DNA from: Deltaproteobacteria bacterium
GTDB taxonomy: Bacteria > Desulfobacterota > GWC2-55-46
Direction of reading: 5' to 3'
DNA: 64,000 nucleotides
Assembly (NCBI GenBank): GCA_016212705.1
Contig: JACREU010000006.1
Location: 25,030 to 89,029, forward strand
Under the pieces are notes generated by a model. It saw only the letters and a list, made by a program, of their open reading frames with translations. It had not been told where the DNA came from and searched no databases. Made by a program: the position numbers and the translations under genes. Of this stretch, positions 14,511 through 62,811 are shown piece after piece. Numbering within the stretch: position 1 is the first letter of the stretch; every line of letters starts with the position of its first letter.

Positions 14511-16667
14511 TCAGCAAGCCTCTTTGAGCGCCTCCTCGATTACGACCATGTTCTTGCCCCTGTTCTTCGCCCTGTATAGGTTGTCGTCAGCGGCCTTTAT
14601 GAGGTCTTCCATCGTCCTTATCTCCTCGGACGGGAAGAACCCTATGCCGATCGATACGGTCACCTTCCGGCCGTTCATGCCTGAGAACATATTCTCTTCG
14701 ACCGCCTTCCTCACCTTCTCGGCGAGGACCACCATCCCGTCCGGCGGGCAATGAGTGACGAACCCCATGAACTCCTCGCCGCCGTAGCGCGCCCAGACGT
14801 CCGTAGTACGGGTCTTTGCCTTGAGTATGCCGGAGAGCTCGGCGAGTATCCTGTCCCCCTGCTGGTGCCCGAACGTGTCGTTTATGGACTTGAAGTTGTC
14901 TATGTCTATCATCATTACGGCGAGCTGGTGGCGGTAGCGCTTGGCCTTTGAAAACTCCGCCGAGAGCACGTCGAAGAGGTGTCTCCTGTTGTACAGCCCG
15001 GTCAGCGGGTCCGTGACCGAGAGCTTCTCAAGCTCCTTGTGGATGAGCGCGTTGTCGAGCGCGATCGCTATCTGGGCGACGAGATACTCTATGTGAAGCA
15101 CCTCATCGGGGTTATAGGGGTGCAGACTGCCGAGGACGAATACCCCCGAGAGCTTCTCCTTGCAGATCATGGGGAACCAGGCGAGCCCTGACGGCATTAT
15201 CTTCGTAAACCCCGTCTCTACCGAGAGGTTCGCGTCATTTATGCCCTCAAGGAGAACGGTCTTCCTTTCGAGCGCGCACTTTCCGGCGAGCCCCTCGCCG
15301 AAGTTCAAGGTCCTCACCTCTCCCTCGCCCGCGCCGAAGGAGGCGACGGGTTTCAATAACTCGTTAGCCTCGTCGTGTATGTAGACGGCCCCCATGTGCG
15401 AGTTCGTGAGCTCTATAGTGCGCCCGAGCGCCTTTCTGAGGAGCGCCTCCGGCTCGTTGCTCTGGATGAGTATCTTCGAGAGCTCGTTGAAGCGGTTGAG
15501 CCTTTTCTCCCGGAGCTGTATGGAGCCGAGCATCTGGTTGAACCCGTCGGCTATCTTTTCGAAGTCGTCACCTGTACTTACCTCCACCCTGACGTTCAGG
15601 TTCCCATTCGCGGTCTCGTCCATCGCGGAGGTGATGGCGCTTATGGGCTTTACCGTGTCCCGGTAGGAGAGGCCGGCGAATATGAGGCTGAATACGACCC
15701 CGAGGCAGGTGACGAGGAGTATGTTCTTCTTCATCTCCACGAGGTTGTGCCTTACCTCGGACCCGAATATGCCTACGGCGAGCGCGCCGACGACCTTTCC
15801 GTCGGCTCTTGTGAGCGGCTCGATGGCGAGGAACGCCTCAACCCCTTCAAGGAGTGTCGCCCCGGCGTACGGGACGTTACTCAGCACCTTCGCCCCTATG
15901 TCTTCGGGGAGCGCCGACATGGGGCCTAAGACGGGCCTTGAGACCGACGTAGAGGCTATTACGCGCGCCTCCCTCTCGGTGTCCGCGATTATGGCCGATG
16001 TCACGTTATAGTTCTCGTATATGGCCCTCGGCAGCCATTCGTACCCGTTAAGGAGTATACCGGTTACGAACGCGCCCGAAGACCTCCCGCCGTTTACAAC
16101 CGGGGTCACCGCTATCTGCATGAGGGCGCCGCCTTCGACCCCGGATGCGAGCTCCGCGCCCTCCTTTGCAAGGAAGTCCCTTGTAACCGTCTCCGTGGAG
16201 GTGACGGGCTCTGCCGAGGACAGCGCCCTTGCGACTATGCCGTTCACATCGAGGATGTCGCCGGTCCTGCCGTTCCTCCTCGCGATGACGCGCCCGTCCG
16301 GGCCGACGACGGCCCAAAGGTCGACGTAGCCCCTGGAGGCGGCGTACCCGTCAAGGAGCTTCTTTAGCCCGGCGGAATCCCGCCTCGCGACCGCCTCCCT
16401 TACGGCCTCCTCGGACCCTGCCTGCAACATGCCGAGCTTCATCTGCTCCATCCTCATCTGATAGAGGCGTAGCGCCCCCTTGAGGTTGGATTTGAGCGAA
16501 TCGACGGCCTCCCTGTCAGTCTCTCTTGAGAGGGTATGGGTGGCGTAATAATAGAAACCCCCGCCGAGGACCGTGATTATGAGGAGGAATGCAAGGAGGG
16601 TCTTGGTGGCTATCGACATGGGGACCCTCCAGCCCCCCAATTTGACCTTATAGACCTTTTCCGGCAT
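14511..16667 (-). CDS. diguanylate cyclase with periplasmic sensor domain, HAMP, GAF and GGDEF domains
   Basis: 718 aa. TM - ~280-aa extracytoplasmic region - TM - HAMP - GAF-like - GGDEF with intact RYGGEEF. AAGGAG ribosome-binding site before ATG 16667. Confidence 0.88.
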   Translation of the reverse strand: MPEKVYKVKLGGWRVPMSIATKTLLAFLLIITVLGGGFYYYATHTLSRETDREAVDSLKSNLKGALRLYQMRMEQMKLGMLQAGSEEAVREAVARRDSAGLKKLLDGYAASRGYVDLWAVVGPDGRVIARRNGRTGDILDVNGIVARALSSAEPVTSTETVTRDFLAKEGAELASGVEGGALMQIAVTPVVNGGRSSGAFVTGILLNGYEWLPRAIYENYNVTSAIIADTEREARVIASTSVSRPVLGPMSALPEDIGAKVLSNVPYAGATLLEGVEAFLAIEPLTRADGKVVGALAVGIFGSEVRHNLVEMKKNILLVTCLGVVFSLIFAGLSYRDTVKPISAITSAMDETANGNLNVRVEVSTGDDFEKIADGFNQMLGSIQLREKRLNRFNELSKILIQSNEPEALLRKALGRTIELTNSHMGAVYIHDEANELLKPVASFGAGEGEVRTLNFGEGLAGKCALERKTVLLEGINDANLSVETGFTKIMPSGLAWFPMICKEKLSGVFVLGSLHPYNPDEVLHIEYLVAQIAIALDNALIHKELEKLSVTDPLTGLYNRRHLFDVLSAEFSKAKRYRHQLAVMMIDIDNFKSINDTFGHQQGDRILAELSGILKAKTRTTDVWARYGGEEFMGFVTHCPPDGMVVLAEKVRKAVEENMFSGMNGRKVTVSIGIGFFPSEEIRTMEDLIKAADDNLYRAKNRGKNMVVIEEALKEAC

Positions 16668-48932: not shown

Positions 48933-50276
48933 TTGACGCATCCTTCCCAACAAAATAATCCACTCCGCGTCTCCGTAACCACCCTCGGGTGCAAGGCGAA
49001 CCAGTACGACTCATCGGCCCTCGAAGACGTGTTGCGGGACGCCTCCCTCGTCGTCGTCCCCTTCCCCGCAATGGCGGAGGCGTACGTGATCAACACCTGC
49101 ACGGTCACGGAGAAGACCGACTACCAGTCGCGCCGGCTCGTCAGAAAGGCGCGGAAACTCAACCCGGACGCCGTCGTCATCGTCACCGGCTGTTACGCGC
49201 AGGTCTCTTCAAGCGAGCTCGCAATGGTCGACGGCATCGACTATGTCATCGGGAACCCCGAAAAAGGGCGCATTGTCGAATTCATTCGGGGCGGAAGGAG
49301 GAGCGCGCCCCTCGTAGAGGTAGGCAGATACGAGGACGGCACTTCTCTCGCACTCCGTTCCCGCTCCGCGGGGGGCAGGACTCGCGCGAACCTGAAAGTC
49401 CAGGAAGGGTGCGACAGGGCCTGCTCCTATTGTATAATACCGAAGGCGCGGGGGTTATCCAGGAGCGTTTCCTTAAAAGAAGCTCTGCGAGACATAGACG
49501 CGCTCGTCGACGCCTCGTTCAAGGAGATAGTATTGACGGGCATACACCTCGGGGCCTACGGAGGGGACCTTACCCCTCCGTCGAACGTACTCGCGCTCTT
49601 CAGGGAGATAGAGGCTAACAGATACCCATGCAGGTTCAGGATAAGCTCGCTCGACCCGGATGAAGTGACGGACGACCTCATCGCATTTCTTGCGGAGTCA
49701 AAGACATTCTGCAACCACCTCCACCTCCCGCTTCAGAGCGGGGACGACACGATACTCAGGGCCATGAGGAGGCCTTACACACGCGAAGAGTTCGCGGACA
49801 AGGTCTTCCGGCTCATAGAATCCGTCAAGGATATCTCGATAGGCGCAGACATAATCGCCGGGTTCCCCGGAGAGGGGGAGCGGGAGTTCGATAATTCGTA
49901 TTCTCTTGTCGCATCCCTCCCAATCTCCTATCTGCACATATTCCCGTACTCGAAGAGGCGCGGCACGCCAGCCTCCTCTTACAAAGGCCAGGTCTTGCCC
50001 GATGCCGTAAAGGGGCGCATCGAGAGGTTGCAGCCGCTCGACGCGGAAAAGAGGCGGTCGTTCTACGAAAAGTCCGTTGGTAAAACGGCCGAAGTGCTTG
50101 CCGAGCTCTCCCGCGACAAAAAGACCGGGCTCTTGAGGGGCAGGAGCGCCAACTACATCCCGGTCCTCTTCGACGGCCCGGAGAGCCTTAAAAACACCAT
50201 TGTAAAAGTACGGTTCGCGTCCTATGACGCGACCGGGATGACGGGCGCCACGGGACAAGGAGAACAGGGTCTGTGA
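48933..50276 (+). CDS. mtaB: radical SAM methylthiotransferase, MtaB/MiaB-like
   Basis: N-terminal LGCKANQYDS, radical SAM CDRACSYCIIP. The TTG start has no clear ribosome-binding site, so the start is uncertain. Confidence 0.85.
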   Translation: MTHPSQQNNPLRVSVTTLGCKANQYDSSALEDVLRDASLVVVPFPAMAEAYVINTCTVTEKTDYQSRRLVRKARKLNPDAVVIVTGCYAQVSSSELAMVDGIDYVIGNPEKGRIVEFIRGGRRSAPLVEVGRYEDGTSLALRSRSAGGRTRANLKVQEGCDRACSYCIIPKARGLSRSVSLKEALRDIDALVDASFKEIVLTGIHLGAYGGDLTPPSNVLALFREIEANRYPCRFRISSLDPDEVTDDLIAFLAESKTFCNHLHLPLQSGDDTILRAMRRPYTREEFADKVFRLIESVKDISIGADIIAGFPGEGEREFDNSYSLVASLPISYLHIFPYSKRRGTPASSYKGQVLPDAVKGRIERLQPLDAEKRRSFYEKSVGKTAEVLAELSRDKKTGLLRGRSANYIPVLFDGPESLKNTIVKVRFASYDATGMTGATGQGEQGL

Positions 50277-51010
50277 AAAACGAACCAAACATCGAGAAGT
50301 TCTGCAGGACGCTCCCTTTCAAGTTCAGCGACATGGAGCTCCTCCGGAAGGTCTTCGTCCACCGGAGCTATCTGAACGAAAAAGAGTCGTTGAGACTAAA
50401 GGCCTTTGAGTCGAACGAGAGGCTCGAATTCCTCGGCGACGCCGTATTGTCCAGCGTCATAAGCCACATGCTCTTCGCGAAATTCCCGGATATGGACGAG
50501 GGGGGGCTGACGAAGATACGGTCCCGTCTCGTGAACAGGCATACGCTCTCCGGGCTTGCCAGGGGCCTTGAACTGGATAAATACATGTACCTCGGCAAGG
50601 GCGAGCGGACAAGCGGAGGCGCGCTGAACCCGATGATACTCGCCGGGGCCTTCGAGGCGCTCATCGCGGCCATGTACTTCGAACTCGGGTTCAGGATGGT
50701 CTTCTCTTATATAGAGACGGTCTTCGCGCCCCTCATCGACGCCTCCGTTGTTCAGCCGGGCCACTTCGACTATAAGCCCAGGCTCCAGGAACTTGCCCAG
50801 AGGGTCTTTAAGGAGGCCCCCCGGTACAGGACCGTCAGCGAGGAAGGCCCGCCGCACAAGCGGACTTTCGTTATCGAGGTGACGATAACCGGCGAGGTAT
50901 ACGGCAGGGGCTCGGCCTCGAAGAAGAAGGACGCCGAGCAGTCCGCCGCGGCCTCTGCCCTGAAGGAGCTTGAGGAGAGGCAAGGCGGTGTTTTTCCGGA
51001 GCGCGGCTAA
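50273..51010 (+). CDS. rnc: ribonuclease III
   Basis: NERLEFLGDAVL signature and C-terminal dsRBD. GTG start overlaps the mtaB stop (GTGA). Confidence 0.92.
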   Translation: MKNEPNIEKFCRTLPFKFSDMELLRKVFVHRSYLNEKESLRLKAFESNERLEFLGDAVLSSVISHMLFAKFPDMDEGGLTKIRSRLVNRHTLSGLARGLELDKYMYLGKGERTSGGALNPMILAGAFEALIAAMYFELGFRMVFSYIETVFAPLIDASVVQPGHFDYKPRLQELAQRVFKEAPRYRTVSEEGPPHKRTFVIEVTITGEVYGRGSASKKKDAEQSAAASALKELEERQGGVFPERG

Positions 51011-51825
51011 TGGCGAAAAAACAGCTCATAATACCGGCCTTTTTGCCGTTCGGCGGGTGCGCGCACCAGTGCGTATTCTGCGATCAGGCCGGGATAACCG
51101 GGGAGAGGGCGTTACCGCCCTTCGAATCGATAGCCCCTCTTATAGAGAAGTATCTTTCCACGTGGAAGGGCGCGGGGCTGCGGGAACTCGCCTTCTACGG
51201 CGGCAGTTTCACCGGACTCCCCAGAGCGGTGCAGGAAGGGTATCTCAAGGCCTCTAAGCCTTACGTGGAGAGCGGACGGATCGACTCTGTCAGGATATCG
51301 ACGAGGCCCGACAATATAGACCCTGAGACGCTCCGCTTCGTCAAGACATACGGCGTAAAGACCATTGAGCTCGGGGTGCAGTCGATGTCGGACGAGGTGC
51401 TTAAGGCCTCCGGCAGGGGGCATACCGCCGAAGACACCAGGCGCGCCGCCTCCCTGATAAAAGAGGCCGGGATAAGGCTCGGCGTACAGCTCATGCCAGG
51501 GCTCCCCAGGGACACGACGGAGACCATCCTCGATACCGTTGACAAGGCCGTTTCTCTCTCCCCCGACTTTGCGAGGCTCTACCCCGCGCTGGTCTTAAGG
51601 AACACCCCGCTTTTCAGGATGTACGAGCGAGGCGAGTACAGGCCGTGGGCGCTCGATGATATGGTCCTCGTCTGCAAAGAGGCGATGAAAAGGTTGGCAA
51701 GTGCCGGGGTCCCCGTAATAAGGGTAGGTCTGCAGACGACTGAAGAGCTCTCGCGGAGTCTCGTAGCCGGCCCGTATCATCCGTCGTTCAGAGAGCTCCT
51801 ACTCGATACCGGACGCGCGCTCTAA
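51010..51825 (+). CDS. radical SAM protein, ELP3-like core without acetyltransferase domain
   Basis: CAHQCVFC (C-x3-C-x2-C) near the N-terminus. The ATG overlaps the rnc stop (TAATG). Confidence 0.82.
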   Translation: MAKKQLIIPAFLPFGGCAHQCVFCDQAGITGERALPPFESIAPLIEKYLSTWKGAGLRELAFYGGSFTGLPRAVQEGYLKASKPYVESGRIDSVRISTRPDNIDPETLRFVKTYGVKTIELGVQSMSDEVLKASGRGHTAEDTRRAASLIKEAGIRLGVQLMPGLPRDTTETILDTVDKAVSLSPDFARLYPALVLRNTPLFRMYERGEYRPWALDDMVLVCKEAMKRLASAGVPVIRVGLQTTEELSRSLVAGPYHPSFRELLLDTGRAL

Positions 51826-51901: not shown

Positions 51902-52351
51902 CTACCTGAGGGTGCTTACCACCTTTACGTCGGGGTTGTTCTGGACAAGGCCGATGGCGACGTACCCTATCGCGCCCTTCTCCCTCATCACCCGCCTGAT
52001 GATAAGGGTCGGGGTCTTCATTATCTGGGGCGGGTTCTTGGCCTGATTTGTGATCTTCAGGTGCGCCCACTCCTCGGCGACGAGGTCAGGGGCCTTGCCG
52101 AGTATCTTCTCGGAGAAGATCGCACGCGACTGGTCGTTGATGGAAAGGTCGTAGATGATTATCGGGACCCCGTCGGGCCACGCGAGCGTGTTGTTGGTGT
52201 ATATCTTCTTAACCTCGCCCTCGGTGAGCTTATCGACCTGGTTCGCCCTGTTCACGATAATGGCGACGGGTTCCGCGGCCTCAATTGAAGAGGCGGAAAG
52301 GACGAGCGCGACGGCTGTAAGGAGCGCTATTTTTTTCAGGAACGCGGCCAT
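51902..52351 (-). CDS. short periplasmic substrate-binding-like protein (PstS/phosphate-binding-protein-like half domain)
   Basis: Signal peptide ...SIEAAEP, then IIVNRANQVDKLTEGEVKKIYTNNTLAWPDG. The start overlaps the porin stop (TAATG). Confidence 0.72.
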   Translation of the reverse strand: MAAFLKKIALLTAVALVLSASSIEAAEPVAIIVNRANQVDKLTEGEVKKIYTNNTLAWPDGVPIIIYDLSINDQSRAIFSEKILGKAPDLVAEEWAHLKITNQAKNPPQIMKTPTLIIRRVMREKGAIGYVAIGLVQNNPDVKVVSTLR

Positions 52352-53520
52352 TACAGGTCTCCTATGGCGACGGCGACCCCGAGGATGGCCTGGCTGTAGT
52401 CGTCCATGGACGGGTCGTCGAACCCGTTGCTGTTGAACTCGATCTTCCCGACGACATTATGGGCGAAGCGGTAGTTGACGGCGGCCGTAGCCCTCGTCCA
52501 GAGGTCGTCGGGGGATTCCGACGACGGGTCGTACCAGTCGTACCTTGCCGCGAGCGTCCATTTGCCGATGTCGTACTCTGCCTGGGCGTACCAGCCTGAA
52601 TCGTCGGAGCCGGAAGCGGCGTCGGTTTCATTCGACCTGATTTGGTACTCGGCCTGAAGCCTCAAGGCCGACCTGTTAAAAAGAATGTGGCCCCCGTAGC
52701 TCATCCTCGACGCCCCGTCGTTGTCCCTTTCCCCGAAGTAAGAAAACCCGGTGGAGAGTCCCGCGAGGAGGTCGGCGTTAAGACGCGCGCCGATCCCCTT
52801 CGACTCGTTACGGTCGAGCGCCCCCGGGTTCCCGGCGCCGTTTGCGACGTAGAGGTGCGTGTCAATGGACGAGTCCCGGAGGCTGAACGAGTTCTTAAGC
52901 TGTACGCCGTCCGAGACCTTGGGGAATATCTCCTTGTATATGATAGGCGAGGTCTGGGTCGGCACGTACGGCGGATAGTGATAAATGGACCAGACGCCCG
53001 CCGGCGTCAGAAACCTGCCGAGCCTTATGTCCCATGAGAGCATCGGGTGGTATTCGATGTAGAGCTGTTCGACAAAGATCGTGCCCTGGGAGCTCTTTAC
53101 GGTATCCGCGGCCTTTTCAGACTCTATCCTCGGCGCGTCCTCGAACTCGACCTCGGTGAATAACTTCCATTCCCGCTGGATGTCCTTTGTGAAAAACAGG
53201 CTCAGATGGCGGATCCTGAACCCGGAGTCCTCGCCCTCCCGGTCAGTGAAGGCGTACTCAGCGTCCGCGTACCCGCTTACTTCAACGAGGTTGGAAAGGA
53301 GGCCGAGGCCGTGCCTCGTCTCCTCGTCTTCGGCCTCCAGCGCGTCGATGCGCCCTTGAAGCGCCTCGTTCTCTTTTTTAAGCTCCTCCAGATCAATCCG
53401 GAAGCGCTCCAGCGGGTCCTCAGCGAGCGCCGGTACGGACGACATCAAAAGCAGAAAAGAAAACGCGCGGAACGCCCCTTTGAAAAGCCCCGACGCGCGC
53501 GTCCCCCTGTCCATAGCCAT
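52351..53520 (-). CDS. outer-membrane beta-barrel porin (porin O/P-like) with N-terminal coiled coil
   Basis: Signal peptide ...VPALAEDP, coiled coil LEELKKENEALQGRIDALEAE, then alternating amphipathic beta-strand pattern rich in Tyr/Gly/Asp. Confidence 0.7.
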   Translation of the reverse strand: MAMDRGTRASGLFKGAFRAFSFLLLMSSVPALAEDPLERFRIDLEELKKENEALQGRIDALEAEDEETRHGLGLLSNLVEVSGYADAEYAFTDREGEDSGFRIRHLSLFFTKDIQREWKLFTEVEFEDAPRIESEKAADTVKSSQGTIFVEQLYIEYHPMLSWDIRLGRFLTPAGVWSIYHYPPYVPTQTSPIIYKEIFPKVSDGVQLKNSFSLRDSSIDTHLYVANGAGNPGALDRNESKGIGARLNADLLAGLSTGFSYFGERDNDGASRMSYGGHILFNRSALRLQAEYQIRSNETDAASGSDDSGWYAQAEYDIGKWTLAARYDWYDPSSESPDDLWTRATAAVNYRFAHNVVGKIEFNSNGFDDPSMDDYSQAILGVAVAIGDL

Positions 53521-55275
53521 CTATGCCTCTCCCCCATCCCGGTCCGCGTACGGGAACCGGAGCGTGAACGCAGTCCCTTCATTCATTATGCTCTCCGCGT
53601 CTATCGCCCCGCCGTGCTTCATGACTATCCTGTAGACGACGTAGAGCCCGAGCCCCGTGCCCATTCCGACGGGCTTGGTCGTGAAGAACGGGTCGTATAT
53701 CTGGGAGAGGTGCTTATCTGGTATCCCCGCCCCGGTGTCCGTTATCCGCGCCTTAACGAACTCCCCCTCCCTCCAGCACTTGAGGCCGAGCGTCCCGCCC
53801 CCCTCCATCGCGTGGAGGGCGTTTACGATGAGGTTCACGAAGACCTGCTGGACCTCGACGGGGTTGCCGTTTATGAGGCAGTCCCTGCGGAGGTCGGAAG
53901 AGACCGCTATCCCCGCGAACGAGGCCGAGTGCCTCGCCATCTTGACCGAGTTATCGAGCACTGCGGCGAGGTCGACTGTCCCTTCGGCTATGTTCTGCGC
54001 CGACCTCGAGTAGATCGACAATTCCCTTACTATGTCGCGGGCGTTCACCGAGTACTGGATGATGTCTTTTGTGTGGGATTTTATCAGCTCCATGTCGTCC
54101 TCGTCCATTATCGCCTCGGCCATGCCGAGTATCCCGGCGAGCGGGTTGTTTATCTCGTGCGCGATGCCGGAGGCGAGCGTGCCTATGCCGGCGAGCTTCT
54201 CGGATTGCAATATCTTGAACTGGAGCATCTTCTGCTCGGAGATGTCCTTGCCTATGCCGACGGTGCCTATGATCTCGCCCCTGTCGTTCAGCATGGTGGA
54301 AAGGGTCAGGCTCACGTGGAGCACCCTGCCGGACTTCGAGCGGAGCCTCACCTCCCTGTTCCTCACCTCCCAGACCTCCCCTCCTATGGGCCTGCCGCCG
54401 TCCACGGCGTCTGACCTCTGTCCGTGGCTCTCGTAGAGCATGAGGACGTCTTTTCCCACGACCTCCGCCTTCCCGTACTCCAGGAGGTGCTCCGCCTCCC
54501 GGTTGAACTTTACGATCCTGCCCTCCGTGTCCGTCGTGACTATGATGACCTTGGAGTTGTCCAGTATCATCTGGAGGTAGTACTCTGTTTCGCGCAAGTC
54601 GTTGAAGGTCCTGTTAAGGTCCTCGCTCCTCTCCTCGAGCCGCTTGTATATCCTGTTCTTGTCCCTGATGACGAGCCCGGCTATGAAGAGCGCGCCGACC
54701 GGGATGGTTACTATGGCCCCGAGGACCCAGATGAGCGTCCGCATGTAGTTCAGGAGCTCGAAGTCCCACTCGGTGGAGAGCCTTAGCTTCAGGACCCCCA
54801 ATACCTCGCCATCGGTCTTATGGCACCTGAGGCACGCACCCTCGGCCTTCAGAGGCACGTAGCGCGAATACGTCGACTCCTCGCGGTTAAAAAAACCCAT
54901 GGGCGCCATCTGCTCTATGGACTTTATGAAGGCCGCCTTTTCCCCTTCGCCTATCCTGTCCCTCCGCAGGCGCCCTATCTCCCCGCCGAAAGAGGCCTCG
55001 CCGCCGTTCAGTCTGAATATCCCAATGTAATCGACGCCTATGAGGTTGTTGTTGGCGAGTATCATCGAATAATTGCCCGCCGCGTGGCCGCCGCTCATGA
55101 TGTCGACCGCGGAGCGGGCGATGAGCTCTGAAGTCAGCTCGGTCTGCTGGACTATCCTGTATATAACCCTGTCCTTGAGGTTAAGCGAGGTATAGGTGAA
55201 AATAGCCGTGATGGCGATCATGAAGACCATGAGCGCGACGACGAGATAGTGAAGCATGGGCCTCACCCTAACCAT
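53521..55275 (-). CDS. sensor histidine kinase with periplasmic c-haem-binding (CXXCH) sensor domain, PAS, HisKA, HATPase
   Basis: TM - ~170-aa periplasmic domain containing ACLRCH - TM - PAS - H-box AHEINNPL - HATPase (GTGLGL). The stop abuts the porin start. Confidence 0.88.
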   Translation of the reverse strand: MVRVRPMLHYLVVALMVFMIAITAIFTYTSLNLKDRVIYRIVQQTELTSELIARSAVDIMSGGHAAGNYSMILANNNLIGVDYIGIFRLNGGEASFGGEIGRLRRDRIGEGEKAAFIKSIEQMAPMGFFNREESTYSRYVPLKAEGACLRCHKTDGEVLGVLKLRLSTEWDFELLNYMRTLIWVLGAIVTIPVGALFIAGLVIRDKNRIYKRLEERSEDLNRTFNDLRETEYYLQMILDNSKVIIVTTDTEGRIVKFNREAEHLLEYGKAEVVGKDVLMLYESHGQRSDAVDGGRPIGGEVWEVRNREVRLRSKSGRVLHVSLTLSTMLNDRGEIIGTVGIGKDISEQKMLQFKILQSEKLAGIGTLASGIAHEINNPLAGILGMAEAIMDEDDMELIKSHTKDIIQYSVNARDIVRELSIYSRSAQNIAEGTVDLAAVLDNSVKMARHSASFAGIAVSSDLRRDCLINGNPVEVQQVFVNLIVNALHAMEGGGTLGLKCWREGEFVKARITDTGAGIPDKHLSQIYDPFFTTKPVGMGTGLGLYVVYRIVMKHGGAIDAESIMNEGTAFTLRFPYADRDGGEA

Positions 55276-55393
55276 GGTTGCCGCTCCTTAGTGGTCTTTT
55301 GCAGTATCATCGACATCGGTTGGCGCGCGGAAAAACTTTAATAGCGGCGGGCTCGCCCGCCGCCCCGGTGCCGTGGGCCGGGGGAATAAGGGG

Positions 55394-56473
55394 TCAGCCC
55401 CTGTTGCAGTGATAGACCTTGTTATCCAGGAAGAGGTCTACGAGCTCGGGGTCGAGTTGCGCGCCGGAGACGCGCCTCATCTCGCCCAGGACCGTCTCAA
55501 GGGGGAGCCCCTTCCTGTACGGGCGGTCCGAGCTCATCGCGTCATAGAGGTCGACGACGGCTATTATCCGGGCTGGGAGCGGTATCTCCGTTGCCGCGAG
55601 GTTCCTCGGGTAACCCGTGCCGTCGTAGTGCTCGTGGTGCGCGACTATTATCCGCGCCACGGGCTCCATGAGCGGCACCCCGCTCAATATCTTCTCTCCT
55701 ATCTCGGTGTGCGCCTTTATGTGGACGCATTCTTCAGAGGTCAACGGGCCTTCCTTGTTGAGCACAGCCTCGCTTATGCCGATCTTCCCGAGGTCGTGGA
55801 GGAGCGAGGCGTACTCGATCGTCTCAAGCTCCTCGGGGGTGAGCCCGGCGAGCCTCCCGAGTTCGACGCAAAGAGACCTCATCCGGTTGCAGTGGCCGCT
55901 CGTATGGCGGTCCTTGGCCTCGATAGTCTCGGCGAGCACGTTTATGAGCTGGATGTTCATGGATTTGAGGAGCCCGTAGGCCCTCTGGAGCTCCATGGCC
56001 TTGGAATTAAGCTCCCTCGTCCTCTCCCGCACCTTCTGCTCAAGGAAGAGCTGGTACTCCCGGTTCTCCATCTCGAGTTCCTTGTTCCTCTCGAGGAGGT
56101 CCCTGTTCACAAGGGCCCGTGTGACTACCGCCATCAGCTCCTCTTTCTTCACCGGCTTCATGATGAAGTCGAAGGCGCCCTTTTTCATGACCTCTACGGC
56201 TACGGCGACGTCGGTGAGGCCGGTCAACATTACGACCGGGGTCGTGTCGAAGTTCTCCTTCACGAACTCAAGCACCCTGATGCCGTCGACCTCGGGCATC
56301 CGTATGTCGCTTATTACGATATCGAACGCGCTGTTCTTAAGCGTATCGAAGACCGAGTTGCCGCCGGAGGTCTGGATGACGGAGAACCCCTCCTTGGAGA
56401 GGTGGGTATTGAGCACCTTCCGTATCGGCTCCTCGTCGTCGACGACGAATATGGACCTTTTCCGCTCTTCCAT
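55394..56473 (-). CDS. response regulator with HD-GYP phosphodiesterase output (RpfG-like)
   Basis: REC domain (DDEEP...SDIRMP), then HDLGK and HHEHYDGTGYP motifs. Confidence 0.9.
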   Translation of the reverse strand: MEERKRSIFVVDDEEPIRKVLNTHLSKEGFSVIQTSGGNSVFDTLKNSAFDIVISDIRMPEVDGIRVLEFVKENFDTTPVVMLTGLTDVAVAVEVMKKGAFDFIMKPVKKEELMAVVTRALVNRDLLERNKELEMENREYQLFLEQKVRERTRELNSKAMELQRAYGLLKSMNIQLINVLAETIEAKDRHTSGHCNRMRSLCVELGRLAGLTPEELETIEYASLLHDLGKIGISEAVLNKEGPLTSEECVHIKAHTEIGEKILSGVPLMEPVARIIVAHHEHYDGTGYPRNLAATEIPLPARIIAVVDLYDAMSSDRPYRKGLPLETVLGEMRRVSGAQLDPELVDLFLDNKVYHCNRG

Positions 56474-56688
56474 GTGTCCCCGCTCGGCAAAATGTGGGTC
56501 AGGCCTTAAAAAAAAACAGCAGGACCCGGATAAGGCCCTGCCTTTCTTAAAGAGAATTTTTGGTACTTAAGCGCATCTCATTACCCGTTGCTTAAAGACA
56601 CGGGGATTTTACCTTAGAACCGATTGTCTGTTCAATGTTTTTAATGTTAAGGTACAAGGCAAGGCGCGGGGTTGGCAAATCAATACTA

Positions 56689-61494: not shown

Positions 61495-62811
61495 ATGATA
61501 AAAAAGATCCCGATAGAAGACTTGAAAGCAGGCATGTACGTCTCCGCCCTCCAAAAAGGCGGGGACGTTGACATGTTGTCTTTTATGAACAGCATACTCA
61601 TAAAAGACGAGACAGAGATCAAAAAACTCAAGTCCAAAGGGTACTTAAGCGCCTGTATAGTCGAGGACGACCCCCGGACGCTCCCATTAAAAACCCCTCA
61701 AAAGGATAGGCCTGCGTCATCAGGTACAGAGGCGGAGCGCCTGCCTCTTGAAACGACCGGCGCGACTTCCGCAGGGCCGCCTCCAGTTGTCGAATCTTTC
61801 GCACCCTATGCCGCGCCCGTAGCAAAGGCCGTCCCCTCCCTTGCCGGAGACGCCGTCGATTTCAACGAGGAGCTCAGGGACGCGAGGGAGGTACGAGACG
61901 AGGCCGAGGAACTTGTAAGGTGTTTCATGGAGTCCGTCAGGGCCGGGGAGGAGATTGAGACCGACAGGGTGAATGAGACCGTCGGAAAGATGGTCAGCTC
62001 CATCTTCAGGAACCAGGACGCCCTTACAAGCCTCTCACGCCTGAAGTCCTTCGACGACTACACGTTCGCGCACTCCGTGAACGTCTGCATACTCTCGCTA
62101 ACGCTCGGCAGGCACATGGGATTCTCCGAGGAGGCCCTTCATAACCTCGGGGTCGGCGCCATACTCCACGACATAGGGAAGATGCTCGTGCCTGAGACGA
62201 TACTCAAAAAGCCGGGCTCTCTTTCGGACGCCGAGTTCAGGGAAATGAAGCGGCATACGGAGCTCGGGGGAGACATGCTCCGCAAGACAAAGGACATTAC
62301 GGACGAGTCCCGCCGAGTCGCCCTCCACCACCATGAAAAGTTCGACGGCTCCGGCTATCAGGACAGGCTCTCCGGAGAGGACATCCACCTCTTCGCCCGG
62401 ATAGCGACCGTAGCCGACGTCTATGACGCCATGACCTCCAACAGGGTCTACCAGAAGGGGATGCTCCCTGAGGCGGCGCTAAAGAAAATGTACCTCATGC
62501 GCGGGACCCACTTCGACCCCGAGCTCGTCGAGAGGCTCGTAAGGTCGCTCGGCATATACCCGATAGGCTCTTTTGTCGAGCTCTCCACGGGTGAGCTCGC
62601 CGTAGTCCGCATGCCCAACCACGAGCACCCGCTTCAGCCCCGCGTCCTCATATTCTCCCGCAAGGACAAGACCCCCTGCGAAAAGCGCATTGAGGTGGAC
62701 TTGAAGGGAGAGATAGGCCGATGGATAATCGCCGCAAGGGACCCCGGGCCGCTAAAACCCGTAATAGACCGGATAATGGCGGAGGCCGAAGGGCTCTCCT
62801 TCGCCTCCTGA
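61495..62811 (+). CDS. HD-GYP domain phosphodiesterase with DUF3391-like N-terminus
   Basis: Start at MIKKIPIEDLKAGMYVS (ATG 61495). HDIGK and HHHEKFDGSGYQ motifs. Confidence 0.88.
   Translation: MIKKIPIEDLKAGMYVSALQKGGDVDMLSFMNSILIKDETEIKKLKSKGYLSACIVEDDPRTLPLKTPQKDRPASSGTEAERLPLETTGATSAGPPPVVESFAPYAAPVAKAVPSLAGDAVDFNEELRDAREVRDEAEELVRCFMESVRAGEEIETDRVNETVGKMVSSIFRNQDALTSLSRLKSFDDYTFAHSVNVCILSLTLGRHMGFSEEALHNLGVGAILHDIGKMLVPETILKKPGSLSDAEFREMKRHTELGGDMLRKTKDITDESRRVALHHHEKFDGSGYQDRLSGEDIHLFARIATVADVYDAMTSNRVYQKGMLPEAALKKMYLMRGTHFDPELVERLVRSLGIYPIGSFVELSTGELAVVRMPNHEHPLQPRVLIFSRKDKTPCEKRIEVDLKGEIGRWIIAARDPGPLKPVIDRIMAEAEGLSFAS

Follow-up and report, generated by a model that had tools for sequence, protein, structure and literature searches.

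We analysed a 64,000-nucleotide stretch of DNA (the window) from the genome of a Deltaproteobacteria bacterium (GenBank assembly GCA_016212705.1, contig JACREU010000006.1) and report here on four intact open reading frames (ORFs), on its minus strand at 51902–56473, which encode a response regulator, a sensor histidine kinase, a porin and a small secreted protein that resembles one lobe of the phosphate-binding protein PstS (hereafter the mini-protein). We propose, with moderate confidence, that they form one operon in which a two-component system is joined to an accessory envelope module, such that a signal sensed on haem would be integrated with one delivered by the porin/mini-protein cassette. 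The sensor is of a known type, joined to an accessory module that has apparently not been described and the function of which we infer. The assembly comprises 1.98 Mb in 122 contigs and is 86% complete, and the window DNA is approximately 93–94% identical to that of the metagenome-assembled genome (MAG) Deltaproteobacteria bacterium GWB2_55_19.

An original prediction, made from the DNA sequence alone, had given the gene order as REC–HD-GYP regulator, 118-nt gap, kinase, porin and mini-protein, with translational coupling of the last three genes. Both the order and the coupling were read directly from the DNA: 118 nt separate the regulator stop codon from the kinase start codon, the kinase stop codon TAG directly abuts the porin ATG, and the porin stop codon overlaps the mini-protein start codon as TAATG. 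The domain calls of that prediction were likewise borne out by a Pfam profile search.

The periplasmic sensor domain of the kinase

The kinase carries a single CXXCH motif, Ala-Cys148-Leu-Arg-Cys151-His152, within a stretch of approximately 145 residues between two transmembrane segments. As the hydrophobic segments (residues ~10–30 and 176–200) that flank this sensor domain have basic residues on their cytoplasmic sides, the motif is assigned to the periplasm. It was invariant in all 29 homologues (sensor-region identity 46–85%) while its inner residues varied freely (LR, LK, LE, AS, QG, RG, MG, QA, VK, LS, SS and VS), so that its retention is more than would be expected by chance. Among 16 non-redundant orthologues encoded in the collected loci, 15 kept the motif, the exception being locus L075, in which it reads CEECE.

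A profile of 20 sensor domains, searched against 177,635 PDB sequences, gave as its best two matches the Geobacter sensor domains GSU0582 (3B47; E 0.028) and GSU0935 (3B42; E 0.046), with the CXXCH motifs aligned. Foldseek with an AlphaFold (AF2) model of the domain [predicted local distance difference test (pLDDT) score 73, predicted template-modelling (TM) score 0.74] again placed chain 3b42_B at the top, followed by the extracytoplasmic PAS/Cache domains of WalK, CitA and PctD, with E values of 1e-3 to 2e-2. The modelled CXXCH (model residues 117–121) lies in a loop between strands 104–112 and 127–136, and no short helix was modelled without the haem, at a pLDDT of only 73. With Pfam, the domain alone scored 16.7 bits against PF11845 (Tll0287-like; cut-off 24.1) and 16.2 bits against PF21563 (Mcp40H-20_sensor; cut-off 27); 18 of 20 orthologous sensor domains matched the former weakly and all 20 the latter, none of them above the cut-off. 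The sensor profile also matched a stand-alone 181-residue protein of the same genome, which itself scores 104.9 bits with PF11845. For the attachment of haem, the genome encodes ResB (C111:25723-27015) and CcsA (C111:27255-27938) side by side, i.e. System II; CcmE of System I was not found in the assembly, which is irrelevant because System II is present.

These properties resemble those of the sCache_haem group, which unites DUF3365/Tll0287 with GSU0582/GSU0935 and in which CXXCH is 99% conserved (2026 preprint, PMC12889525). Joined to a signalling module, one member bound nitric oxide (NO) tightly but not O2, and such fused domains act as NO sensors (PMC12889525). Desulfobacterota, Nitrospirota and their relatives commonly have members of the family (PMC12889525; PMC8396549). 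Like its members, GSU0582 and GSU0935 included, the kinase has a periplasmic, probably Cache/PAS-like domain between two transmembrane helices with a signalling output fused to it, a single conserved CXXCH near the C-terminal β-strands, and, on the N-terminal helix, a candidate for the distal ligand at a residue number near Met60 of GSU0935. It differs in falling below both Pfam cut-offs, in that its conserved distal candidate is His (which would give His/His ligation) rather than Met or Cys, and in that its gene is always found with those for a porin and a one-lobe PstS-like protein, an association on which the papers describing the family are silent. Judged by profile and fold, the kinase sensor is a divergent member of this known group and probably carries covalently bound haem on its periplasmic side. 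The original prediction had pointed to the single ACLRCH motif and to the haem-c sensors GSU0582 and GSU0935, and had made its case depend on conservation of the Cys and His residues in orthologues; on all three points it held.

We also considered that the CXXCH might not be a haem site, its Cys pair forming instead a redox-active disulfide or, with the His, a metal site, given that the Pfam haem-sensor models were matched below threshold only and that Cys-x-x-Cys with two His residues could in principle bind a metal. However, the best PDB match of the motif is the haem motif of two solved haem-c sensors, one of which (3B42) is also the best match by fold; the same profile recognizes a bona fide Tll0287-like protein of the genome; it is CXXCH, and not merely CXXC, that occurs in 29 of 29 homologues; and haem lyase genes are present. 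We therefore regard a non-haem role of the motif as most improbable.

Candidate axial ligands of the haem

Upstream of the CXXCH lies an M..GH motif, the Met and Gly-His of which are invariant in close orthologues; in a wider set His65 occurs in every CXXCH-bearing sequence and Met61 does not. In the L075 kinase, AR replaces GH as CEECE replaces CXXCH, so that both histidines were lost together. This kinase (L075:3903-5678, from the MAG ‘Proteobacteria bacterium C1.bin.21’) is encoded in an otherwise intact five-gene operon, and it may have lost its haem without losing the porin and the mini-protein. The axial ligands of GSU0935 are Met60 and His144 of its C140-x-x-C143-H144 motif (PMC8396549), residue numbers almost equal to those of Met61/His65 and His152 in the kinase. 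From this one natural double loss and the analogy with GSU0935, we infer that His152 serves as proximal ligand and that the exchangeable distal position is taken by His65 or, less probably, by Met61.

A c-type haem would thus be held covalently by Cys148 and Cys151, with His152 as its proximal ligand and a residue of the M61..H65 segment, most likely His65, as the exchangeable distal one. A redox change or a small ligand such as NO would displace this distal ligand, as in GSU0582/GSU0935 and the NO-binding sCache_haem receptors. His65 lies on a helix that continues from the first transmembrane helix, and the displacement would move this N-terminal helix and so reset the activity of the kinase.

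Besides the kinase, the genome encodes a chemoreceptor and a HAMP-PAS receptor with haem-c sensor domains, as well as the stand-alone protein mentioned above; none of these three haem-c sensors has the cassette, and the genome has one mini-protein only. The chemoreceptor (L113:1270-3378, contig C52) has the motif CSSCH175 and the HAMP-PAS protein (L114:1-1274, i.e. C13:1-1274) the motif CNTCH177; similar haem-c chemoreceptors adjoin the operon divergently in L067 and L075. The gene for the stand-alone Tll0287-like haem-c protein (L115:853-1944, on contig C50 of genome G000) adjoins one for cytochrome c' (PF01322); proteins of this class are known to bind NO.

The mini-protein is PstS-like in fold only

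The mini-protein matched PBP_like_2 (7.9e-8 in Pfam) over positions 92–192 of the 267 in the profile only. It has a signal peptide and neither a lipobox nor any Cys residue; it is therefore not a lipoprotein and is predicted to be soluble in the periplasm. When its AlphaFold (AF2) model (pLDDT 93.5) was compared with the PDB by Foldseek, the top 26 matches were all full-size PstS/phosphate-binding proteins, aligned over approximately 125–140 columns with a TM score of approximately 0.6 by query and approximately 0.3–0.4 by target, a difference which indicates that it corresponds to one lobe. In the alignment with 4Q8R/4GD5, the mini-protein segment VSREDGSGTRDAF lies opposite IYDLSINDQSRAIF, and the lobe-2 phosphate ligands are replaced, Arg by Leu69 and Ser-Gly-Thr by Asp-Gln-Ser (DQS). 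This ligand loop varies across the family, even within the clade associated with haem-c kinases, and the best-conserved surface block is instead W95...I-T-N-x-A-K-N-P-P. The protein thus lacks both the two lobes that enclose the ligand in PstS (it has 149 residues and one lobe) and the lobe-2 Arg and Ser-Gly-Thr ligands; in addition, no permease or ATPase genes (pstCAB) were found in the window operon or the orthologous loci, where the neighbours are the porin, kinase, regulator and housekeeping genes. On the evidence of model and alignment, the mini-protein is PstS-like in fold only.

In a representative library (50%-identity level) we found 2,107 relatives of the mini-protein at E ≤ 1e-3, and nearly all of the best 150 of these 2,107 are 135–170 residues long. 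Tandem doublets with two lobes and approximately 270 residues also occur (P0169, P0182, P0198 and P0222) and hint that the functional unit is a dimer. Other relatives are anchored in the inner membrane through a disordered linker of approximately 280 residues (P0224, P0229, P0231, P0241, P0242, P0278 and P0288), and one (P0202) is fused to a tri-haem cytochrome c7 domain. We looked for porin/mini-protein fusions as Rosetta-stone evidence and discarded the candidates, the long library matches being the transmembrane-anchored proteins with a disordered linker.

The porin matched Porin_4 (1e-14; 55.5 bits, cut-off 27) and Porin_O_P (5.9e-9; 36.1 bits, cut-off 20.9) in Pfam, its N-terminal signal-like sequence ends ...PALA/ED, and by sequence it had no match in the PDB. 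Its coiled-coil-like N-terminus was considered as a universal docking stalk and rejected, as only 21 of 59 cassette porins have one.

A porin/mini-protein cassette beside many kinds of receptor

The mini-protein was found in 53 of the 401 genomes of the phylum that were searched. With the flanks extended and the GTDB species representatives scanned as well, this search gave 61 non-redundant mini-protein genes from several phyla; as the cross-phylum scan used the ten closest mini-proteins (an alignment of 21 sequences being too divergent), that part of the sample is biased towards the window's own sub-family. Of the 61 loci, 55 have a porin gene as direct neighbour on the same strand, and in 46 of the 61 a transmembrane transducer is encoded within two genes: 15 haem-c kinases, ten other kinases, 18 chemoreceptors and three GGDEF/EAL proteins, with the partner type confirmed by Pfam for ten of the 46. 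Six of the 15 loci that have no transducer end at contig edges. As many of the partners are chemoreceptors, which do not regulate transcription, it is unlikely that adjacency simply marks the cassette as a regulated target.

Every partner receptor has the topology transmembrane segment, periplasmic domain, transmembrane segment. The periplasmic domains fall into at least eight clusters, no two of which reached an hhalign probability above 31%, so that a sensor domain common to all cassette-linked receptors was rejected as an explanation. Within a sensor cluster the outputs are mixed, kinases occurring with chemoreceptors or with GGDEF proteins. The mini-proteins of the haem-c kinase operons group together in a maximum-likelihood tree as a single clade (99/99), to which those of L076 and L084, the two MAGs with unrelated flanks described below, also belong; in genomes with two cassettes (G130, G252, G120 and G307) the copies belong to different clades according to their partner. 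The sensor cluster of the partner requires 11 changes on this tree (minimum 9; shuffled mean 25.7, with none of 500 shuffles as low), or nine when the haem clade is removed (minimum 8; shuffled mean 17), and the output type of the partner requires 19. The mini-protein thus travels with the sensor domain rather than the output, and this pattern in the tree suggests that it may co-evolve with the former.

One locus (L053:5915-12389, genome G093) holds a tandem array of a porin gene, two successive porin/mini-protein pairs and a chemoreceptor gene, after which come ORFs that the set of hidden Markov models used did not assign; the two mini-proteins of this array are near-identical.

A full-text search found no description of a porin/half-PstS cassette in the literature, and it is mentioned neither in a review of solute-binding proteins in signalling (PMC8050422) nor in the sCache_haem preprint (PMC12889525). 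Judged by gene neighbourhoods and profile matches, a porin with a half-size PstS-like protein is apparently a widespread, undescribed, generic cassette that accompanies many kinds of receptor.

Conservation of the operon

All contigs that were fetched for orthologous kinases keep the order regulator–kinase–porin–mini-protein. Most of these loci also share the flanking genes of the window, namely an ELP3-like radical SAM (S-adenosylmethionine) protein gene, rnc and mtaB on one side and genes for a DedA-family protein, a pyridine-nucleotide oxidoreductase and a PfkB protein on the other. In the window, the mtaB-rnc-ELP3-like radical SAM cluster is convergent with the operon (48933–51825, plus strand) and is syntenic with it in most relatives. 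Two MAGs labelled Zetaproteobacteria (L076) and Nitrospinota (L084), labels which may be unreliable, have none of six flank genes and yet keep the kinase, porin and mini-protein. Synteny of the porin and mini-protein genes with the kinase, on which the original prediction had also staked its case, is therefore preserved even among foreign flanks. In the window's own family, the mini-protein occurs in two of four other genomes.

The kinase core and the predicted cyclic di-GMP output

The regulator matched Response_reg (1.9e-28; 99 bits) and HD_5 (5.7e-39; 134 bits) in Pfam and has the motifs of both domains: D12/D13, D56, T83 and K~106 of the receiver, and HD226, HHE279 and GYP287 (G-x-GYP285-289) of the HD-GYP domain. 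Its nearest NCBIfam model is NF053512 (NosR-family response-regulator phosphodiesterase for cyclic di-GMP), against which it scores 240 bits, below the 400-bit cut-off. The kinase matched PAS, HisKA (35.4 bits) and HATPase_c (77.4 bits), with the catalytic boxes in place (H373 in HEINNP, N481, G1 as DTGAG513 and G2 as GMGTGL537), and a REC–HD-GYP gene goes together with the haem-c kinase gene in almost all orthologous loci, among them those with an additional REC gene (see below). With these motifs intact, the predicted output, hydrolysis of cyclic di-GMP (c-di-GMP) under the control of a two-component system, stands as it was first put forward.

Enzymes of c-di-GMP metabolism are dense in this small genome, which has at least 12 GGDEF and at least nine HD-GYP genes; a further GGDEF gene and a further HD-GYP gene lie within the window itself, at ~14550–15017 (minus strand) and ~62068–62526 (plus strand). 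A five-gene variant of the operon, in which an extra single-domain REC protein (approximately 120–134 residues) is encoded between the REC–HD-GYP gene and the kinase gene, was found in L041, L043, L067, L075 and L076, and in L084 at the start of the contig. With this extra REC, the phosphorelay of some lineages may be branched or of the sink type.

Operon signals

The positions of the genes, domains and regulatory elements are collected in Table 1. Upstream of the regulator gene, a promoter scan found TTGAAC-N18-TAAAAT at 56635–56606, and the −35/−10 pair and its spacing are kept in an alignment of orthologous loci whose proteins are 52–85% identical, so that this element is the probable promoter of the operon. 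The same scan found no promoter-like site in the 118-nt gap between the regulator and kinase genes, and for this reason the four genes are probably transcribed as one unit. A strong, terminator-like hairpin separates the promoter-like element from the regulator gene; it may attenuate transcription in the leader or else terminate that of the upstream DedA-family gene. L063 has a hairpin and U-run at the matching position of the leader, built on another stem sequence. Taken whole, the leader folds no more stably than shuffled sequences (z = 0.31) and neither it nor the 118-nt gap gave an Rfam match at E ≤ 1, and a riboswitch or other known RNA was accordingly dismissed for both.

Table 1. Features of the operon and its upstream region, in window positions
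Feature	Position	Strand	Length, basis or remark
Response regulator, REC + HD-GYP (c-di-GMP phosphodiesterase type)	55394-56473	-	359 aa; Pfam
Sensor histidine kinase: transmembrane segment 1, periplasmic predicted haem-c sensor domain, transmembrane segment 2, PAS, HisKA, HATPase_c	53521-55275	-	584 aa
Periplasmic sensor domain, residues ~31-175, divergent sCache_haem/GSU0935-type	54751-55185	-	Profile, fold
C148-L-R-C151-H152, predicted covalent haem-c attachment motif and proximal His	54820-54834	-	Conservation, alignment
M61-S-G-G-H65, N-terminal helix region, candidate distal haem ligand	55081-55095	-	Conservation
Porin, Porin_4/Porin_O_P type, with signal peptide and coiled-coil-like segment ~34-68	52351-53520	-	389 aa
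Mini-protein, secreted, one-lobe PstS-like	51902-52351	-	149 aa; mature ~124 aa
Sigma-70-type promoter-like element, TTGAAC-N18-TAAAAT and overlapping variants	56606-56650	-	Promoter scan, conservation
Terminator-like hairpin, 10 bp (6 G-C), then U9	56509-56542	-	Between promoter-like element and regulator start

What the cassette may contribute

In the mechanism that we favour, the translationally coupled porin and one-lobe protein would act as a co-sensor cassette: the porin would let a solute into the periplasm, and the half-size protein, probably as a dimer, would contact the periplasmic domain of its cognate receptor and thereby add or gate an input. The kinase would integrate this signal with the one sensed on haem and phosphorylate the REC–HD-GYP regulator, and the hydrolysis of c-di-GMP would be altered. 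We hold a wider form of this proposal more tentatively, as a fair possibility short of an even chance, namely that the cassette is an envelope-spanning co-sensor that docks on many receptor families with its mini-protein lineages co-evolving, and that in the present operon the breakdown of c-di-GMP needs both a redox or NO signal and a porin-delivered solute or envelope signal.

Several of our own results weigh against this mechanism. On the side of the haem, the matches to the haem-sensor families are below the curated Pfam cut-offs, the model of the sensor domain is of moderate confidence only (pLDDT 73), and the three other haem-c sensors of the genome work without a cassette. On the side of the cassette, the residues that correspond to the PstS anion site vary even within the haem-kinase clade, so that no ligand can be proposed, and the library matches included no fusion of a mini-protein to a porin or to a receptor. 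Nine of the 61 cassettes have no recognized receptor nearby, and the neighbours in such loci are non-signalling genes (for a molybdopterin oxidoreductase, LpxB, an FGE-sulfatase protein and Hsp70); linkage to receptors is thus not universal. Furthermore, the synteny of the haem-c operons is largely simple descent where the flanks are shared, most such operons lying in one genomic context, and a co-inherited block of genes can give the same tracking on the tree without physical interaction.

The original prediction had gone further and read the operon as a self-contained circuit, in which the molecule sensed on the haem is imported by a dedicated porin and binding protein and c-di-GMP is then lowered. 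The part that leads from the haem-c kinase to c-di-GMP is retained here; the part in which the porin and mini-protein exist to deliver the haem ligand is weakened, because the cassette also stands beside chemoreceptors, GGDEF-EAL proteins and CXXCH-less kinases and because the genome's other haem-c sensors manage without it. NO, CO and O2, moreover, need no porin, and NO and CO diffuse through membranes. A closed, haem-specific pathway, with the porin admitting the sensed molecule and the mini-protein capturing it and handing it to the haem domain, would fit the tight translational coupling of kinase, porin and mini-protein genes and the separate clade formed by the mini-proteins of haem-c kinases; the fusion of one library mini-protein to a tri-haem cytochrome c7 domain hints at a link between mini-proteins and haem proteins, and a charged haem ligand (nitrite, sulfide or sulfite) would indeed need a porin. 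Against it stand the sensor domains of the cassette partners, which are of at least eight unrelated kinds and mostly CXXCH-less, the existence of cassette-free haem-c sensors in the genome, the membrane-diffusible nature of the best-characterized ligands of the sensor family (NO and CO), and the absence of any conserved ligand site visible on the mini-protein, and we consider such a pathway unlikely.

An equally unlikely explanation, to our minds, is surveillance of the envelope: rather than passing a solute, the pair would report on the state of the outer membrane or of the porin, and a disturbance of that membrane or of porin assembly would be the one condition under which the mini-protein touches its receptor in the inner membrane, in the manner of RcsF, which works with OmpA/C/F. 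The adjacent porin gene in 55 of 61 loci and the TAATG overlap in the window, which suggest a stoichiometric porin/mini-protein complex, the degenerate ligand site, the many different receptors and the approximately 280-residue disordered linkers of some anchored relatives, which could span the periplasm, all speak for it; however, the window's mini-protein is soluble and secreted without a lipobox, RcsF is an analogy and not a homologue, and the clade-specific pairing with sensors fits specific recognition equally well. It is still less likely that the porin and mini-protein are an ordinary pair for nutrient anion uptake of the OprP/PstS kind, merely co-transcribed with the two-component system or regulated by it. 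Their matches to Porin_O_P and to the PstS family would suit such a role, but neither the window operon nor the orthologous loci contain permease or ATPase genes, the binding protein has one lobe from which the Arg and Ser-Gly-Thr phosphate ligands are gone, the partners other than kinases are most often chemoreceptors, and these do not control transcription, and the output of the system is hydrolysis of c-di-GMP rather than a DNA-binding regulator.

Relation to known systems

The nearest precedent for the proposed co-sensor cassette is the activation of the chemoreceptor CtpL by full-size PstS, itself a PBP_like_2 protein, in phosphate chemotaxis of P. aeruginosa (PMC8050422). In PstS–CtpL, as in LuxP–LuxQ and TorT–TorS, a secreted protein of the periplasmic-binding-protein fold is encoded with, or acts with, a transmembrane receptor; however, those binding proteins are full two-lobe ligand clamps, whereas the mini-protein is a single lobe that has lost the phosphate ligands, and the cassette has a dedicated porin and partners from many sensor families, with which contact would be made as proposed above. 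The pairing of OprP/OprO with PstS brings the same families (Porin_O_P and PstS/PBP_like_2) side by side, and differs from the cassette, which has no PstCAB, a half-size binding protein, anion-site residues that are not conserved, and a link to receptors and not to transporters.

On the output side, RpfC/RpfG, H-NOX/HnoK-HnoB/HnoD and NosP-NahK are systems in which a sensor kinase acts on a c-di-GMP phosphodiesterase regulator, the input of the H-NOX and NosP systems being NO sensed on haem. The operon shares with them a histidine kinase that would control a REC-fused c-di-GMP phosphodiesterase, but its haem is predicted to be a covalent haem c in the periplasm and within the kinase itself, whereas the H-NOX and NosP systems use a separate cytoplasmic haem-b protein. 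A further difference is the sub-threshold score of the regulator on NF053512 (NosR family; 240 bits against a cut-off of 400).

Models of bacterial sensing mostly pass over the way in which signals get across the outer membrane to receptors in the inner one, and if our interpretation is correct, a dedicated porin with a half-sized binding protein would constitute a general level of signal input that is new and present in several phyla. The mini-protein is in addition a natural single-lobe version of the periplasmic-binding-protein fold, which makes it relevant to the question of how the two-lobe fold evolved. The operon would also add to the haem-c Cache sensors a divergent and probably His/His-ligated branch, which would link them to the turnover of c-di-GMP in uncultured groundwater bacteria.

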